From Candidatus Dormiibacterota bacterium (GTDB lineage: Bacteria; Chloroflexota; Dormibacteria; CF-121): DNA of 64,000 nt. Below, in pieces: positions 2,371 through 21,150 of the stretch. Made by a program: the position numbers and the translations under genes. The notes below the pieces were generated by a model that worked only from the letters and a program-made list of their open reading frames with translations, ran no database searches and had not been told where the DNA came from. Position 1 is the stretch's first letter. The number at the start of each line of letters is the position of its first letter. Location: assembly GCA_036513655.1 (NCBI GenBank), contig DATBYO010000002.1, positions 12,246 through 76,245 on the forward strand, read 5' to 3'.

Positions 2371-3903
2371 ATGCCGGAGCTGTTACCGGCCAACACCTGG
2401 GACGCTGACCCGACGCTGCGCTCCGTGCTCACGGTGTGGCTTCGACCCGCAACCCTGGCTCTGGCCGAGCCCGGACTCCGTGACATGGGTCGGGCCGCCG
2501 CCGAGGAGCTGCAGGCGTGGGGCGATGCCTGCGAACGCCAGCCGGCGTTCTTACGGTCGTTCAATGGTTGGGGCGAGCGCGTTGATGAGGTCGTCTGCCC
2601 TGACGCCTGGCGCCGGCTCGCGGCTGCCGGGGCACAAGCCGGGCTGGTCGCCCTGCCCTACGACGGCCTGGTGCGCTTCGGCGCGGATGCGCGCCTGGTG
2701 CAAGCGGCCCTTTGTTACCTGTTCGCGCCTTCGACCGCAACCTACTTATGTCCGGTGGCGATGACGGACGGGGCCGCCCGCGTGTTGCGCGACGCGGGAG
2801 GGGAGGGGCAGGCGCCCGAGGTGCTGCGTCATCTCGTCAGCCGCGATCCGGCCGAGGCGTGGACCTCGGGTCAGTGGATGACCGAGCGCCAGGGCGGCTC
2901 GGACGTCGGCCAGAACGCCGTGGTCGCCCGGCGGGACGGCGACGGGTGGCGGCTCTCCGGGCAGAAGTTCTTCTGCTCCAACATCGGCTGCGAGGTCGCG
3001 CTGGCGCTGGCCCGTCCTGAGGGCGCGCCGCCCGGCACCCGTGGCCTCGCGCTCTTCCTCGTGCCGCGCGATGGTCCAGACGGTCGCCGCAACCACTACC
3101 GGATCGACCGTCTGAAGGACAAGTTGGGGACGCGGGCGATGGCCACCGGCGAGGTGACCCTCGACGGCGCCCGGGCTGAGCTGGTTGGCGGGGCGGACCG
3201 CGGCTTCGCCCAGATGACGGCCATGCTCAATATCACGCGGTTGCACAATGCCGTAACCGCTGCGGCGACGATGCGTCGTGCCTTGATGCTGGCGACCGGG
3301 TACGCTGGCCAGCGCGAGGCGTTCGGTCGAAAGCTCGCGCAACATGCACTGCACGCCGAGGTGCTTGGGGAATTGGCCGCCGAAGCCGACGGTGCGCTCT
3401 ACCTCACGATGCGGATGGCGCAACTCCTTGGACGGATCGAGACGGGCGCGGCCGCGCCGGCTGACGCTGTGCTCTTTCGACTCGGGATCGCGCTCGCCAA
3501 GCTGTACACCGCCAAGCAGGCCGTGGCCGTCACCTCGGAGGCGATCGAGTGCTTTGGTGGCCAGGGCTACATGGAGGACACCGGGCTGCCGAGGTTGCTT
3601 CGCGATGCGCAGGTCCTGCCGATCTGGGAGGGGACGACCAGCGTGCTGGCGCTTGACGCGCTTCGCGTGCTGCGAAAGCCGGACGCGCTCGACGCCCTGG
3701 CCGCGGAACTCGATCGACTCGATGCGCCGGAGCGGGACGGCGCGCTCGACCTGGCGCGCACCGCCGGCGCACAAGAGGGCGATTCGGCGGAGCCTGGGGC
3801 GCGCCGTCTCGCGTTTTCCCTGGCTCGATCCTGGATGGGCGGCCTGCTTGGCCAGGCCGGCGTCGAGGTCAGGCTGCGAGGTATCGGGCCGCCGCAGCCG
3901 TAA
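2371..3903 (+). CDS. Acyl-CoA dehydrogenase family protein, AidB/isovaleryl-CoA dehydrogenase-like
   Basis: 510 aa. The ACAD middle domain ERQGGSDVG and the C-terminal EAIECFGGQGYMED motif match the AidB-like long ACAD subfamily. Confidence 0.8.
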   Translation: MPELLPANTWDADPTLRSVLTVWLRPATLALAEPGLRDMGRAAAEELQAWGDACERQPAFLRSFNGWGERVDEVVCPDAWRRLAAAGAQAGLVALPYDGLVRFGADARLVQAALCYLFAPSTATYLCPVAMTDGAARVLRDAGGEGQAPEVLRHLVSRDPAEAWTSGQWMTERQGGSDVGQNAVVARRDGDGWRLSGQKFFCSNIGCEVALALARPEGAPPGTRGLALFLVPRDGPDGRRNHYRIDRLKDKLGTRAMATGEVTLDGARAELVGGADRGFAQMTAMLNITRLHNAVTAAATMRRALMLATGYAGQREAFGRKLAQHALHAEVLGELAAEADGALYLTMRMAQLLGRIETGAAAPADAVLFRLGIALAKLYTAKQAVAVTSEAIECFGGQGYMEDTGLPRLLRDAQVLPIWEGTTSVLALDALRVLRKPDALDALAAELDRLDAPERDGALDLARTAGAQEGDSAEPGARRLAFSLARSWMGGLLGQAGVEVRLRGIGPPQP

Positions 3904-17096: not shown

Positions 17097-17131
17097 CCTC
17101 CTCCCCGTCCGGGGGAGGGCAGGGTGGGGGT
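17097..17131 (+). repeat. GC-rich palindromic REP-like element, copy C
   Basis: CCTCCTCCCC-GTCC-GGGGGAGGG-CAGGGTGGGGG-TTAG between convergent gene ends. TTAG again supplies the stop of the minus-strand gene. Confidence 0.7.
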
Positions 17132-18231
17132 TAGCCTCCTCCCCAGGTGGACGGCTTGATGTCGATGCCGTCCGGGACGAAGAGGAGGCCAGCGCTGCGC
17201 CCGCTCCGGCCGGTGACGCCGTACTGCCAGACAATCGCGTTCGTCTTCGGGTCGACGATGATCACGCGATTCCGAAAGTCGTCATTGAGCGCGATCAGGC
17301 CATTGCTCAGCTCGATCGCGAGTGAGGGATGATCCAGCATGGCCGTGCCGGATCGGGGCGCATAGCGCCAGACGGCCCGTCCTTGTTTGGTCATGATCAG
17401 GATCTGCCCAGGCCGGGCGTAGTCGACCAGCAGGATGTTCCCGTCCGGGAGCATCTGCGCATCGGAGGGATAGCTGATGCCAGGCGCTCGCGTTGTCCAG
17501 TAGAGGGCGCCGTCCCAGCCGACTTCGCTCACCCACGCGCCCAGGATCTCGGTGATCAGGACATGGCCGTTCTCCAGCGGCGTGTCGCCGTTCGGCAAGC
17601 CGAAGCTCCTTGGCGGATTGTGGGCACAGTAGCCGGTGCGACCCAGCTGGCTCTTGACCGTTTTCGCGTCGTGGTTGACGAGGAGCACGCGGCAGTTGCG
17701 AATGTCCGCCACCCCGATGCTGCCGTCGGGCCACATGTAGGCATCGTCCGGACCGTTGAGATATCCCCGCGCGGATCCGCGATGTTCCGAAACGCCGTAC
17801 TGCCAGACGATCCGATGACTGGCATAGTCGACGAGCACGATGGCATGGGCTTCCTCCTCGTTGACGACGATCGATTTCCCATCCGGGGCATAGAAGGCGT
17901 CGTCGGGCCAGCGGAAGTGCTGGCCTGGCTGGAGGTCACCGGGCCGCGGAAACTCCCAGACGATCTGTCGGTCGGGGGTCACTTCGATCACCCGGTTGTT
18001 CGCGCGGTCGGCGATCAGGAGGTTGCCAGGCAGCACACCCGGGGCCGCGGTTGGTGGTGGCGCCTGTACCGTCAGCGGCGACGGTGAGGGCGGCGGAAGC
18101 TCCTCACCCTGTTGGGCCAGCTTCGCGCTTGATGACGAAGGCGTGGGCTGATTCGCGCAGGCGGTCAGCGCCAGAACCAGAAGGAAATGAAGCGGCAAAA
18201 CAGAAACCTGTTGCCTAAGGGATGCCGCCAC
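17131..18231 (-). CDS. Lipoprotein with beta-propeller-type repeats (NHL/YVTN-like)
   Basis: Signal peptide plus lipobox LALTAC. Repeated IVWQYG / DG...LLVDY motifs over 366 aa. Confidence 0.6.
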   Translation of the reverse strand: MAASLRQQVSVLPLHFLLVLALTACANQPTPSSSSAKLAQQGEELPPPSPSPLTVQAPPPTAAPGVLPGNLLIADRANNRVIEVTPDRQIVWEFPRPGDLQPGQHFRWPDDAFYAPDGKSIVVNEEEAHAIVLVDYASHRIVWQYGVSEHRGSARGYLNGPDDAYMWPDGSIGVADIRNCRVLLVNHDAKTVKSQLGRTGYCAHNPPRSFGLPNGDTPLENGHVLITEILGAWVSEVGWDGALYWTTRAPGISYPSDAQMLPDGNILLVDYARPGQILIMTKQGRAVWRYAPRSGTAMLDHPSLAIELSNGLIALNDDFRNRVIIVDPKTNAIVWQYGVTGRSGRSAGLLFVPDGIDIKPSTWGGG

Positions 18232-18317
18232 GTTGCCCGGAAGTATAGGTGAGGAAGTTGAATAGCGGCTGACCTGGAGAGCGGCCTTCAGTGCTAGTCT
18301 GAAATGAGGGCTGGACC

Positions 18318-18449
18318 ATGGGATTCACGAGCAAACCAGTCAGGGTCATCGAAGTGCCGGAACCGATGTCGGAGCCGCTGCTGGCGCCCGAGAGCGAGCC
18401 GCAGCGGACCGAGAGAGAAGAAGAGGTTCCGGTCACTACTCCGGCATGA
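18318..18449 (+). CDS. Small acidic Pro/Glu-rich peptide (43 aa), translationally coupled to the downstream gene
   Basis: ATG at 18318 with a GAGGG SD 7 nt upstream. Encodes MGFTSKPVRVIEVPEPMSEPLLAPESEPQRTEREEEVPVTTPA. Its stop overlaps the next start (ATGA). Confidence 0.45.
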   Translation: MGFTSKPVRVIEVPEPMSEPLLAPESEPQRTEREEEVPVTTPA

Positions 18450-19042
18450 TCCCGGCGGTCGGTTACCGATTCTGGCGGGTCGACCCGGATGACGCCTGGA
18501 CACGCGGCCGGCTGCAATCGCCAGTGGCGGAAACCCTGTGGCCGCCGCTGGAGCGGCTGGACGCAGAATGTCAGACGCGTCCCGGCCTGCGCCTCGCCCG
18601 CGCGGGGTTGCACCGGCACGATCAGGAGCAGGTCTCGCCGGAGCCGGGTTGCAGTTGCGGCATCTACGCGTACCACGACATCGCCCCGATGACCCGGGCG
18701 CTGCGGGAAGAGCCCTACATGTTCGGGGGAGCGGTCCTGTGTTGGGGTCGGATCGTGATCCATCCCGAGGGCATGCGCGCGCAACACGCGCGGCCTCTCG
18801 CGCTCTGCCGGCCCGAAAGCCCTGGAGTGCAGCAACGCACGGCCGTCCTCCTCCGGGAGGTCACCAAAGAATACGCGATCCCGTTGCTCGAGCTCCGCGA
18901 CCTGGTGGCCTACGCCAGCGAGTTCGGGGCCAGCTACAAACCCGAGCCTCCGCCGCCGTCACGGCACGGTTTGGACCGCGTCCGACATGCGCTGTCGTGG
19001 CGTCAGATGATCCGCCGCCTGGGGAAAGCGGTCGGCGGGTAG
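18446..19042 (+). CDS. Hypothetical protein with conserved-looking Cys/His pattern (GYRFW...H...CSCGIYAY...WGRIVIHPEG)
   Basis: 198 aa with no family recognised. ATGA coupling to the upstream peptide gene. Confidence 0.6.
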   Translation: MIPAVGYRFWRVDPDDAWTRGRLQSPVAETLWPPLERLDAECQTRPGLRLARAGLHRHDQEQVSPEPGCSCGIYAYHDIAPMTRALREEPYMFGGAVLCWGRIVIHPEGMRAQHARPLALCRPESPGVQQRTAVLLREVTKEYAIPLLELRDLVAYASEFGASYKPEPPPPSRHGLDRVRHALSWRQMIRRLGKAVGG

Positions 19043-19118: not shown

Positions 19119-20024
19119 ATGCCGTCGCGGATTTCCCCGCCTGGCCCGTCATACCGGTGCATGCCGGACGGAGCCCCGACGCACCTCCTTCCCGGGCTGG
19201 ACTGGCTGGTCAAGCTCGGCTTCGGGATGATCCTGGCTTCGGCTGGTGTCCTGCTGATCCGCCCTCCGCGCCGGCGAGCGGTGCGCTTTGCGTTAGGCAT
19301 CTTCATCATCGAAGCCGGCGCCCTGGTCGCGATTCGCGGCATCGTGGCCGCGAGTACCTCGCACTGGTGGCAATACCTGATGCCGTTCGCGCTGGTGCTT
19401 GTCCCGGGAATCTTCATCGCGGTCGTCCTGACCCGCTTGCGGTGGTGGCGGCGCGTCGGCTTCACGCCGGTGCGTGAGTGGCGGGCGCCGCACCTGGCGA
19501 TTCCGCTGTTAGTGATGCTCGCCCTGCCCATCGTCGGCTTGTCGGGGCGAGGCATCATGGCGACGACCGCGCTGGTGGTCAGCCTGCAGGTCGGCTTCAT
19601 GCTGATCGACATCTTCATGGAGGAGGTCACCTATCGCGGCGTCATCCTTGAGGCGCTCGCCGGATTCAGTGATGGTTCGCGTGTGTTGCTCTCCGCCATC
19701 CTCTTCGGCCTGAGCCACATCGACAACCTCTTCCTTCCCGGCGCGGATGAGCTCGGCGTCGCTTATCAGATCTTCGAGGCGGCACTCGTGGGCATCCTCT
19801 TCGGTGCGGCGCGACTACGCATGAACACCATCTGGCCGGTGATGGCCGTGCACGCGATGTACGACTTCATGCTCATCCTGGCGTTCGGTCACGCCTTTCC
19901 GGTGGCACCCACCCTGCCCGGTTTTGCGGTGGACACCGTCGTCAACCTCGGGCTCGCCTGCGTCGGGTTGGCATTGCTCCGCCCGCGGCACGCCCGCAGG
20001 GCGGTCAGTGAGGAGGCGGCCTGA
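19119..20024 (+). CDS. CPBP family intramembrane metalloprotease (second paralog)
   Basis: Motifs EEVTYRG, FGLSH and HAMYD. The start is uncertain (GTG at 19119 or downstream ATG). Confidence 0.75.
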   Translation: MPSRISPPGPSYRCMPDGAPTHLLPGLDWLVKLGFGMILASAGVLLIRPPRRRAVRFALGIFIIEAGALVAIRGIVAASTSHWWQYLMPFALVLVPGIFIAVVLTRLRWWRRVGFTPVREWRAPHLAIPLLVMLALPIVGLSGRGIMATTALVVSLQVGFMLIDIFMEEVTYRGVILEALAGFSDGSRVLLSAILFGLSHIDNLFLPGADELGVAYQIFEAALVGILFGAARLRMNTIWPVMAVHAMYDFMLILAFGHAFPVAPTLPGFAVDTVVNLGLACVGLALLRPRHARRAVSEEAA

Positions 20025-20025
20025 G

Positions 20026-21150
20026 GTGAAACTGGGGCGTGGGCACGGCATCACCGTCGCGATCGGCGTCAGTGCGGTGCTCGCTTTCATCGATCTCCAG
20101 TGGTCCTTTACGCTCCACTACCGGCTCGCGCAGCCAGACTTCTTTGTCTACTACCTGGCCGCCCAGATCGGCCGGGTGCAGGGGTGGGCGGCGATGTACG
20201 ACCCCGCCGTCTTCCTGCCGCCGGTCACAGCTGCCATCGGCAAACCACTGCCGTATCTGAATCCGCCGGAACTCGCCTGGCTGGTGACGCCATTGAGCTT
20301 CCTCCCGTATTCCGTCGCCGGCTGGATCTGGACCGGGGTTCTGGCGGCCGCCTTTGGGCTGGTGTGGCACCTGGTCGCGCCCGGACGCGGGCTGATACAC
20401 CTCATTCACGGCGTGGCCGCCGCGGTCCTCCTGCCCGTCTTCGTCGGCGTCCTGTTCGGCCAGATCAGCCTGGTGATCGTTGCTGCCGTCGCCCTCTCAT
20501 GGTGGCTGGTCTCGCAGGGGCGCCCCTGGCTCGCCGGCCTGGCGCTCAGTGCGCTCATCCTGAAGCCGCAAATCGCCTTCCTGGTGCCGATCTCGCTTCT
20601 CCTCGCGGGGTACGGGCGTGTCTTCGTCGCGTGGCTCGCTGCCAGCCTGCCGCTCGCGATGCTGGCGCTACTGGCCACCGGCACCGCGGTGTTCCAGCAC
20701 GTGTTGCAGTCGCTCGATTTCGTCAAGGGCGTACCGGGACCGATCCAGTCTTCATTGCTCCGTCAGCTGCCCCTCCCGGTGGCGCTGATCGGAATCGCGG
20801 GGGTTTTAGGCATATCGGCGTTCGTCGTCTGGCGCGGGCGCGGTAACGGTCCTTCCGGTCCGATTGCCATCGGTCTGCTCAGCAGCCTTCTGGTCAGCCC
20901 GTACGCCAACTTTTACGACCTCTCGGCTCTTGTGCTGGCAGCCTGGCTCATCCTGCGCTTGAATCCGCCACGCTGGCAGCAGGCCGTTACCCTGGGCATG
21001 TACGCGCCCCTCTATGGGGCGCCCATCTGGCCAATCGTCACCCTGGCCTGTCTCTGTGGATGGCTCGTCAGCCTAACGGTTCTCAGCCTGCATGAGCCAC
21101 GCCGAGTCAGCGAGGCTGACAATCGGCTCATCGATCGACGATCGGCTTAA
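20026..21150 (+). CDS. DUF2029-family membrane glycosyltransferase (PimE/GT87-like mannosyltransferase)
   Basis: Multi-TM protein with PYANFYDLS and ILKPQIAFL. I place the start at the GTG immediately after the upstream stop; the upstream 34 aa of the track ORF overlap the previous gene. Confidence 0.7.
   Translation: MKLGRGHGITVAIGVSAVLAFIDLQWSFTLHYRLAQPDFFVYYLAAQIGRVQGWAAMYDPAVFLPPVTAAIGKPLPYLNPPELAWLVTPLSFLPYSVAGWIWTGVLAAAFGLVWHLVAPGRGLIHLIHGVAAAVLLPVFVGVLFGQISLVIVAAVALSWWLVSQGRPWLAGLALSALILKPQIAFLVPISLLLAGYGRVFVAWLAASLPLAMLALLATGTAVFQHVLQSLDFVKGVPGPIQSSLLRQLPLPVALIGIAGVLGISAFVVWRGRGNGPSGPIAIGLLSSLLVSPYANFYDLSALVLAAWLILRLNPPRWQQAVTLGMYAPLYGAPIWPIVTLACLCGWLVSLTVLSLHEPRRVSEADNRLIDRRSA

Follow-up and report, generated by a model that had tools for sequence, protein, structure and literature searches.

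Two overlapping open reading frames (ORFs) on the forward strand of contig DATBYO010000002.1 from a Candidatus Dormiibacterota bacterium are the subject of this analysis, which covered a 64-kb stretch of the contig (64,000 nucleotides, hereafter the window). The first is a small ORF that starts with an ATG at position 18318, ends at 18449 and encodes a microprotein of 43 amino acids (aa), MGFTSKPVRVIEVPEPMSEPLLAPESEPQRTEREEEVPVTTPA, with an isoelectric point (pI) of 4.4, 8 proline and 9 aspartate plus glutamate residues. It is preceded at a spacing of 7 nt by the Shine-Dalgarno (SD) sequence GAGGG (18306–18310). Its TGA stop codon (18447–18449) overlaps the ATG (18446–18448) of the second, larger ORF in the sequence ATGA (18446–18449). 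This larger ORF (18446–19042, also forward) encodes a protein of 198 aa, in which the stretches GYRFW, LHRHDQEQ, GCSCGIYAY and VLCWGRIVIHPEG are found. Exact copies of both proteins lie adjacent in GenBank as HEY4844120.1 (43 aa) and HEY4844121.1 (198 aa), each listed as 'hypothetical protein' of a Candidatus Dormibacteraeota metagenome-assembled genome (MAG). The nearest purine-rich stretch ahead of the larger ORF, GAAGAGG (18420–18426), is located about 19 nt from its ATG and is thus too distant to serve as an independent SD sequence. An earlier annotation made from the letters of the DNA (the sequence-only reading) had described both ORFs, the SD sequence and the overlap in the same way and had regarded the ORFs as a translationally coupled pair. 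The gene structure bears this out, and the ATGA would be the site at which termination is followed by reinitiation. The comparisons described below demonstrate that the pair is a strongly conserved two-gene unit, with members in no fewer than two bacterial phyla as well as in large phages.

Since the window has a G+C content of 66.7% and long spurious ORFs are found on both of its strands, an ORF by itself is weak proof of a gene and a test of conservation was needed. We thus compared 19 orthologous loci with 85–94% protein identity. The ratio of nonsynonymous to synonymous polymorphism (pN/pS) of the small ORF is 0.159, as opposed to 2.3 and 2.1 in the other two frames, and is similar to the value of 0.146 obtained for the 198-aa ORF. 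The variable sites of the small ORF are distributed over codon positions 1, 2 and 3 as 13, 10 and 38. The small ORF is a real gene. Divided into parts, it has a pN/pS of 0.094 in codons 1–20 and of 0.215 in the tail formed by residues 17–43. An alignment of 32 pairs of peptide and larger protein from two phyla reveals P7, E15, P16, P20 and P28 as invariant and R9 as nearly so, and the core shared by the family reads P-x-R-x-[IV]-x-[VI]-(x)-E-P followed by a proline-rich tail. In the window this corresponds to the conserved motif KPVRVIEVPEP (residues 6–16, 18333–18365), a predicted beta-strand that may dock on the partner protein, and to the Pro/Glu-rich tail (18366–18446), the composition of which is kept while its sequence varies. 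Among 57 distinct homologous peptides, proline accounts for 19–38% of the residues throughout and the net charge ranges from −10 to +10; hence, the peptide is defined by its motif and proline-rich tail rather than by acidity. The earlier description as an acidic peptide consequently holds for the clade of the window (pI 4.4) and fails for the family. The tails of these 57 peptides contain no cysteine, no conserved serine or threonine and no conserved C-terminus.

The larger protein, or the domain that makes up most of it, was used as a profile to scan a genome collection, which returned 80 loci. The close ones belong to Dormibacterota, including MAGs labelled 'Chloroflexi CF_', and the distant ones (31–37% identity) to Solirubrobacterales/Thermoleophilia of the Actinomycetota. 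The same small ORF precedes the domain gene, with ATGA or GTGA at the overlap, at all 30 Dormibacterota-type loci with a readable junction (it was confirmed in L032 and L035) and is kept even in paralogues whose large protein is only 40–55% identical to that of the window. Reading of all frames upstream of the actinobacterial domain genes uncovered a small ORF of 27–69 aa at most Thermoleophilia/Solirubrobacterales loci, with the sequence xLPGPSRTITVEPIExP and a proline-rich tail, which can be aligned to the Dormibacterota peptide. In the reverse direction, a metagenome scan that used the PSRTITVEP motif in back-translated form found 80 matches; a proline-rich continuation is seen in 71 of them, and 59 of these 71 carry enough downstream DNA to be judged. 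The domain gene follows the peptide in 56 of the 59, so that the co-occurrence asked for by the sequence-only reading is found from the side of the domain as well as from that of the peptide. Two of the three exceptions, L089 and L115, contain a truncated domain, and only L121 has no domain. The metagenome junctions comprise 27 overlaps of −4 (NTGA), 28 gaps of +4 to +21 and one anomalous or in-frame case. The L115 contig (Ga0207706_10415320) carries a normal microprotein ORF, and its domain ends after about 50 residues and runs in frame into a GNAT/RimJ-like acetyltransferase; this is either a rearrangement or an assembly chimera.

The domain is also encoded on nine IMG/VR phage contigs of 12–115 kb, eight of which measure 56–115 kb. 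By our count, a homologous ORF with the motif is located directly 5′ of the domain gene in six of these nine phage loci (L173, L174, L175, L177, L178, L179 and L181 are named as carriers), and in a seventh, L180, the motif is fused in frame. The phage peptides read MSEVGKPKEKITITPKVEPVP... in L174 and L175, MSQVGEPTKIVTIEPAESPVP...EKVPA in L177, ...GTPREKIRIEPLEVP...EKVPA in L179, MSQIGAPQRVIIVDPVFEPVP... in L178 and MARIGEPNRWWDEPEDDP...VPA in L181. In phage L173 the motif, IGDPQRVIIADPV, and a Pro/Glu tail form the C-terminus of a 126-aa protein (2381–2761), the gene of which overlaps the domain gene by 4 nt and the additional N-terminal region of which has no match in Pfam. The phage junctions checked (L173, L174, L177 and L179) are GTGA, TAATG or 4-nt overlaps. 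Searches of a plasmid collection gave no match, and among GenBank phages the window protein itself found none; a relative of it matches four Streptomyces phages. Several genomes contain paralogues: MAG CF_36 has three (L018, L032 and L033), CF_18 has two (L017 and L035) and CAVWFJ010000003 has two copies 13 kb apart. No second copy of the pair was found within the 64-kb window.

Protein and peptide are also connected by rare natural fusions. In P0075 (SITITVEPVAPP...), P0087 (EPSRTVWIDPAP...) and P0194 the peptide is fused in frame to the domain through the proline-rich segment. The fusion in L114 arose by deletion (PSRTITVEP-LRRPRTPDL-IEPVIGYRLW), which brings the motif to about 10 residues from the first beta-strand of the domain, beta1. 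In L180 (IMG/VR contig 3300022665_001368) two tandem domain paralogues (161–688 and 685–1341, overlapping by 4 nt) begin with PIVHTIEVGEIIAARTWKV and IHEIKVGAITGMRVWRV, respectively; the strand motif is fused to beta1 in each, and a separate microprotein is not present. In both L114 and L180 the motif is thus only one tight turn away from beta1, for which the simplest reading is that it forms a strand pairing with beta1. The relatives P0092, P0108, P0123, P0136 and P0159 carry a zinc ribbon and a Pro/Glu-rich linker ahead of the domain, and together with the fusions they suggest that a proline-rich linker N-terminal to the domain is a general theme. The production of a single protein from the two ORFs by programmed frameshifting or readthrough was considered and rejected, because no slippery site is common to the junctions and their geometry is not uniform: the −4 overlaps lie in the −1 frame, the gaps range from +4 to +21 and may fall in any frame, and phages use TAATG.

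To characterize the 198-aa protein, we collected 53 homologues in a homology search. A profile built from 31 homologues retrieved 9,794 clusters (50% identity) with E≤1e-3 and, at the stricter cut-off of E≤1e-10, still 3,453. The protein itself has no match in Pfam, NCBIfam, PHROGs, PADLOC or the sequences of the PDB. When 145 representatives of the family were compared with Pfam, NCBIfam and PHROGs, matches were confined to fused domains and to a marginal signal for DUF7666 in two of them; a word-index homology search with the 145 sequences yielded no further names or annotation, and in the literature DUF7666 and the motif strings were found in no paper. The AlphaFold2 (AF2) model of the 198-aa protein has a mean predicted local distance difference test (pLDDT) score of 80.6, with the core at about 90 or higher. 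It predicts an alpha/beta domain of about 165 aa, composed of a strand (residues 4–11), short strands, the CxCG strand (73–76), a helix, a hairpin (92–105/109–121) and two to three helices, and a C-terminal basic helix. On average the domain carries a charge of +3.8 and is thus mildly basic. Foldseek comparison of two models with the PDB returned nothing significant, the best E-values being 0.14 for the first and 0.33 for the better model. Against BFVD, the strongest matches came from unnamed phage proteins, namely A0A6J5RL70 (E 6e-9) and A0A1J0GW93 of Streptomyces phage BRock (E 7.5e-7).

R8, W32, P65, C71, G72 and G101 are invariant in all 145 representatives. C42 (18569–18571) is Cys in 144 and His in one, C69 is Cys in 143, His in one and Gly in one, R111 is Arg in 141 and Lys in four, and H106 is His in 136 (94%) and otherwise Y, S, G, E or F. 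The overall pattern reads C42 ... C69-x-C71-G72 ... W100-G101 ... H106 ... R111, in which C69-S-C71-G72 (18650–18661) begins the signature CxCG[IL]YA and W100-G101-x4-H106-x2-G109-x-R111 (18743–18778) is located at the turn of the long beta-hairpin in the model. The putative Cys/His ligands are thus jointly conserved and an interchange of Cys and His is seen at C42 and C69, as is expected of a structural metal site. Three equally conserved cysteines that swap with histidine speak for such a site rather than for a nucleophile. This conservation suggests C42, C69 and C71 as putative metal ligands and H106 as the likely fourth, and the bound metal would probably be zinc. The sequence-only reading had seen a His-then-Cys core in this protein, reminiscent of permuted papain-fold or L,D-transpeptidase-like active sites. 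The histidines of LHRHD are located in a variable loop (residues 45–59, 18578–18622) with pLDDT below 50 and are not conserved; hence, the His-then-Cys order does not exist, and the proposed active site finds no model at E≤1, no fold in the PDB and a conservation that resembles that of ligands.

The only library family with any signal is DUF7666 (PF24703), which is matched by two of the 145 representatives with a best E-value of 0.003 and appears among the weak Foldseek matches in BFVD (E 0.009–0.08, template-modelling (TM) score 0.32–0.35). The window protein, the other 143 representatives and ten further relatives show no match, and the gathering threshold was not reached. DUF7666 is an uncharacterised domain of phage and giant-virus proteins, and both families thus occur in viruses, whereas the best structural matches of the window protein in BFVD are unnamed phage proteins and not DUF7666. 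At best, DUF7666 is a remote and equally uncharacterised relative. An ADP-ribosyltransferase was considered as well and rejected: the first model matched DarT with an E-value of 0.14 and a TM score of 0.34, yet DarT was absent from the matches of the better model, in which Tpt1 had an E-value of 0.74. When the H-Y-E and R-S-E motifs were sought, no conserved catalytic Glu was found; residue 113 alternates between E and Q, and residue 108 varies.

Clues to the role of the domain come from its fusions and from phage genomes. In P0064, L036, L040, L042, L043, L056 and apparently L037, a resolvase catalytic domain is followed by this domain at the position usually taken by the helix-turn-helix. 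The loci, five to six in number apart from the protein P0064, come from distinct Solirubrobacterales MAGs, and no microprotein gene is present there. In phage L177 a DNA polymerase gene begins 2 nt after the domain gene and a deoxynucleoside monophosphate (dNMP) kinase gene lies upstream. In L179 the domain gene has a helicase loader upstream and an HNH endonuclease and a DNA methyltransferase downstream, and in L173 it has RecT upstream and is overlapped at its 3′ end by a CHC2-primase/AAA_25 helicase gene. DNA methyltransferases are close by in L174 and L178, as is an HNH endonuclease in L176. Together with the basic charge of the domain, the resolvase fusions and the phage replication clusters favour a DNA-related binding role, and the most likely function of the domain is to bind a macromolecule, probably DNA. 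Large serine recombinases carry a zinc beta-ribbon DNA-binding domain, and the domain described here resembles it, by analogy and not homology, as a beta-rich, Cys-ligated domain C-terminal to a resolvase catalytic domain, a position that calls for a DNA-binding domain. However, sequence or detectable fold similarity between them is not found, the pattern here is C...CxC...H instead of CxxC...CxxC, and most members of the present family stand alone with a microprotein partner. The resolvase fusions, one of which is encoded at 3488–4498 of L036, may represent a new recombinase architecture or a mobile element.

Taken together, we tentatively favour, at somewhat less than an even chance, a model in which the pair forms a two-subunit zinc-domain complex composed of a microprotein strand and a metal domain that interacts with DNA or another macromolecule. 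The two genes would constitute an autonomous operon that yields both polypeptides in coupled amounts. Ribosomes that end translation at the TGA of the microprotein would reinitiate at the overlapping ATG, and synthesis of the domain would consequently require that of the microprotein and roughly match it in frequency. The P-x-R-x-I-x-V-(x)-E-P segment of the microprotein would then add as a beta-strand to beta1 (GYRFWRV) of the domain. In this view the pair would be a 'split' protein: the microprotein would be a subunit able to detach, and its proline-rich tail would correspond to a flexible linker, either as what is left of one or as its equivalent. The alpha/beta domain (about 165 aa) would hold zinc via Cys42, Cys69, Cys71 and likely His106 and would contact DNA or another macromolecule. 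Strand donation in trans is known from donor-strand complementation in chaperone-usher pili. The present system is mechanistically analogous in that a short, alternating, strand-like segment is encoded apart from the domain and is sometimes attached beside its edge strand. It differs in that the pair is cytoplasmic, has no secretion signals and is unrelated in sequence, and complementation is only proposed. The observations on which the model builds are the gene structure and overlap, the selection, the near-obligate co-occurrence, the fusions, the ligand-like conservation, the resolvase fusions and the phage context; reinitiation, the docking of the microprotein by strand addition and the binding of zinc and of DNA are the steps that we infer from them. 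A more far-reaching version, which we regard as speculative and rather unlikely, would make the pair an ancient, hitherto unrecognised two-component module common to soil bacteria (Dormibacterota, Thermoleophilia) and large phages, in which a zinc domain of new fold acts on DNA and its sheet is completed in trans by the microprotein as a removable 'key' that switches replication, recombination or another DNA transaction.

Several points weigh against the model. Binding of peptide and domain is proposed on indirect grounds, from sequence, and the AF2 model of the fusion P0087 leaves the N-terminal 40 residues undocked with a pLDDT of about 50; as only 3 of the 73 rows of the multiple sequence alignment cover this part, the model counts as weak evidence. 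The charges of tail and domain are not complementary; they correlate positively (rho +0.57), which is a lineage effect. If the motif alone binds, the retention of a free proline-rich tail is unexplained. The relatives L053, L055, L058 and L062 and gp5 of phage GiJojo have no peptide, and the GiJojo homologue also lacks H106. The fold does not resemble a solved structure, so that nothing can be transferred by homology. DNA binding, finally, is suggested by domain architecture and gene neighbourhood, and early regions of phages also hold many unrelated genes for host takeover.

The sequence-only reading had offered a precursor peptide with a modifying enzyme, or an antitoxin/toxin-like pair, as possible functions. 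The fusions, the stable positions, the peptide-less relatives and the absence of any toxin, defence or RiPP (ribosomally synthesized and post-translationally modified peptide) match argue against both. In a toxin-antitoxin-like or inhibitor/effector pair, the domain would be a harmful or otherwise potent effector, acting for instance on DNA, and the labile, disordered microprotein, translated shortly ahead of it, would neutralise it by binding. A small upstream gene with a 4-nt overlap and probably a promoter of its own is the typical architecture of type II systems, genomes hold several paralogues and phages carry copies too, and a split state kept over very long times would suit a subunit that can be degraded separately. 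However, no toxin, antitoxin or defence model was matched in PADLOC, Pfam, NCBIfam or PHROGs, which extends to the absence of homology to type II families, and the peptide has no DNA-binding fold. The in-frame fusions of peptide and domain, and the many relatives that are peptide-less, membrane-anchored or fused to other domains, do not fit such a pair either, nor does the location of each paralogue at a stable syntenic position of the core genome under strong purifying selection, and the weak fold match to DarT, an ADP-ribosyltransferase toxin, disappeared with the better model. We thus consider this explanation unlikely.

A regulatory leader would be a slowly translated, proline-rich upstream ORF, dependent on elongation factor P (EF-P) and often ending in Pro-stop, which gates reinitiation at the domain gene and encodes a peptide that is itself without function. 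This would explain why the tail is constrained in composition (19–38% Pro, with PP/PEP/APP runs) and not in sequence, why bacteria and phages alike retain the stop/start overlap and why the downstream ATG in the window has no separate SD sequence nearby. On the other hand, the N-terminal motif is conserved as amino acids across phyla and phages, with a pN/pS of 0.094 and invariant P7, E15 and P16, and is located a long way from the stop codon, near which arrest motifs usually exert their effect. The in-frame fusions retain the motif within a protein, and about half of the Actinomycetota-type junctions are gaps of +4 to +21 instead of overlaps. A leader without a functional peptide is therefore distinctly improbable.

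In a RiPP-like system, the microprotein would be a precursor whose leader is conserved and whose core varies, and the 198-aa protein would be its modifying or processing enzyme or a chaperone. The conserved N-terminal and hypervariable C-terminal segments of the microprotein do resemble a leader/core layout, the genes are tightly paired and in the window a gene for a CPBP-type intramembrane protease begins 77 nt downstream. Yet this gene and the GT87 gene that follows it accompany only one further locus, L005, in a tblastn comparison of L001–L087, and neighbours are not conserved beyond close orthologues. Scans of the Pfam and NCBIfam libraries matched no known RiPP enzyme, RiPP recognition element (RRE) or transporter family beside the pair. 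The tail offers no Cys, conserved Ser/Thr or conserved C-terminus, serves as an in-frame linker in the fused proteins and is deleted in L114 with the ORF intact, and the conserved cysteines of the larger protein behave as metal ligands, which renders a RiPP-like function very improbable. Hardly credible at all is a Cys/His hydrolase or transferase (papain-like, NlpC/P60 or L,D-transpeptidase) with C71 as nucleophile: C71 is indeed invariant, as is the Gly after it, and H106 is kept in 94% of representatives, but neither Pfam nor NCBIfam gives a match even at E≤1 and the PDB no fold match, the LHRHD histidines are not conserved, the three cysteines are equally conserved and exchange with His, H106 is replaceable by Y, S, G, E or F and C71 begins a beta-strand in the model and not a helix. 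Specifically, papain-like and NlpC/P60 enzymes, permuted ones included, have their catalytic Cys at the N-terminus of a helix, and L,D-transpeptidases (YkuD, PF03734) need a His upstream of the Cys in the motif H...(S/T)xGC(I/V)R(N), whereas here H56 and H58 are unconserved, H106 is downstream and the motif is CxCG[IL]YA.

To our knowledge, functional and conserved bacterial microproteins of under 50 aa have rarely been recognised. One that is kept with its partner across phyla and viruses could serve as a model for peptide action, for instance through a donated strand or through a regulatory subunit that can detach. The 198-aa protein represents about 9,800 clusters (50% identity) that are covered by no curated library, and to this family are now attached a microprotein partner with a 9-residue motif, a probable Cys3(His) metal site and links to DNA transactions. 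If the domain is a new module for DNA binding or replication, it would help to annotate thousands of phage and actinobacterial genes. The pair is new only in the sense that it has no characterised relative; new biology is not demonstrated.

Upstream of the small ORF, an extended −10-like element, TGCTAGTCT (TGnTAnnnT, 18292–18300, forward strand), may be part of the promoter of the pair. Across the 19 orthologous loci, the TG-n-TA-nnn-T block, followed by GAAA..GAGGG, is kept directly 5′ of the small ORF, and GAGGG or a near variant of it is found in most orthologues. This conserved block suggests that the pair has its own promoter. Against this, a scan for the strict sigma-70 consensus revealed no promoter and no terminator was found either. 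An Rfam scan for RNA elements had no match at E≤1.

Downstream of the pair, the gene for the CPBP/Rce1-like intramembrane protease (PF02517, E 1.9e-16; 19119–20024, forward strand) is overlapped by a gene for a GT87 glycosyltransferase (E 2.6e-20; 19924–21150, forward strand). Both are present next to the pair at the closest locus, L005, are absent from the other orthologues and paralogues and probably lie outside the module. The neighbours of the Dormibacterota paralogues differ between paralogue groups, and the chromosomal position is constant within each: the group of the window has a D,D-carboxypeptidase gene upstream, a second has SCP2 and GDE-like glycosidase genes upstream and a third has LysM/LexA downstream. 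As the neighbours are not conserved, the pair is a self-contained unit and not part of a larger conserved operon. The divergent gene upstream of the pair (17131–18231, reverse strand), found at only about half of the orthologous loci, encodes a 366-aa beta-propeller of the PQQ/NHL type with a hydrophobic N-terminus and a Pro/Ser-rich linker, which is probably a secreted protein or lipoprotein.

Among relatives of the domain, gp5 of Streptomyces phage GiJojo (L087, PP725410.1, 2196–2918) keeps the three cysteines but has H106 replaced by Gly and 'WG' by 'SG', and is followed downstream, not preceded upstream, by an acidic ORF of 54 aa with a 4-nt overlap (2915–3079). In one Solirubrobacterales clade without the microprotein, a different conserved gene is located just 5′ of the domain (L053, 3686–3964; L058, 3687–3962), the product of which contains ...RVVTSDRELADRVRAAGA.... 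Further architectures of the family include a C-terminal YDPRxFxPKRKGG motif, C-terminal transmembrane anchors and fusions to GcvH plus SCP2 and to GNAT domains. The motif, approximately YDPRxFxPKRKGG(x)2, is conserved in one subfamily, where it stands behind a low-complexity linker (P0090, P0094, P0114, P0116, P0124, P0127, P0128, P0172, P0173 and P0200); in many other members the C-terminus is instead a tail anchor of one or two transmembrane helices. The Solirubrobacteraceae members P0110, P0143, P0169 and P0187 carry C-terminal GcvH-like and SCP2 domains, and in one Dormibacterota paralogue group (L001, 201–2699; L003, 1484–3864; L035) a stand-alone SCP2 gene and a GDE/MGH1-like glycosidase gene are located directly upstream; this recurrence of SCP2 as fused domain and neighbouring gene may be a coincidence or a functional link.

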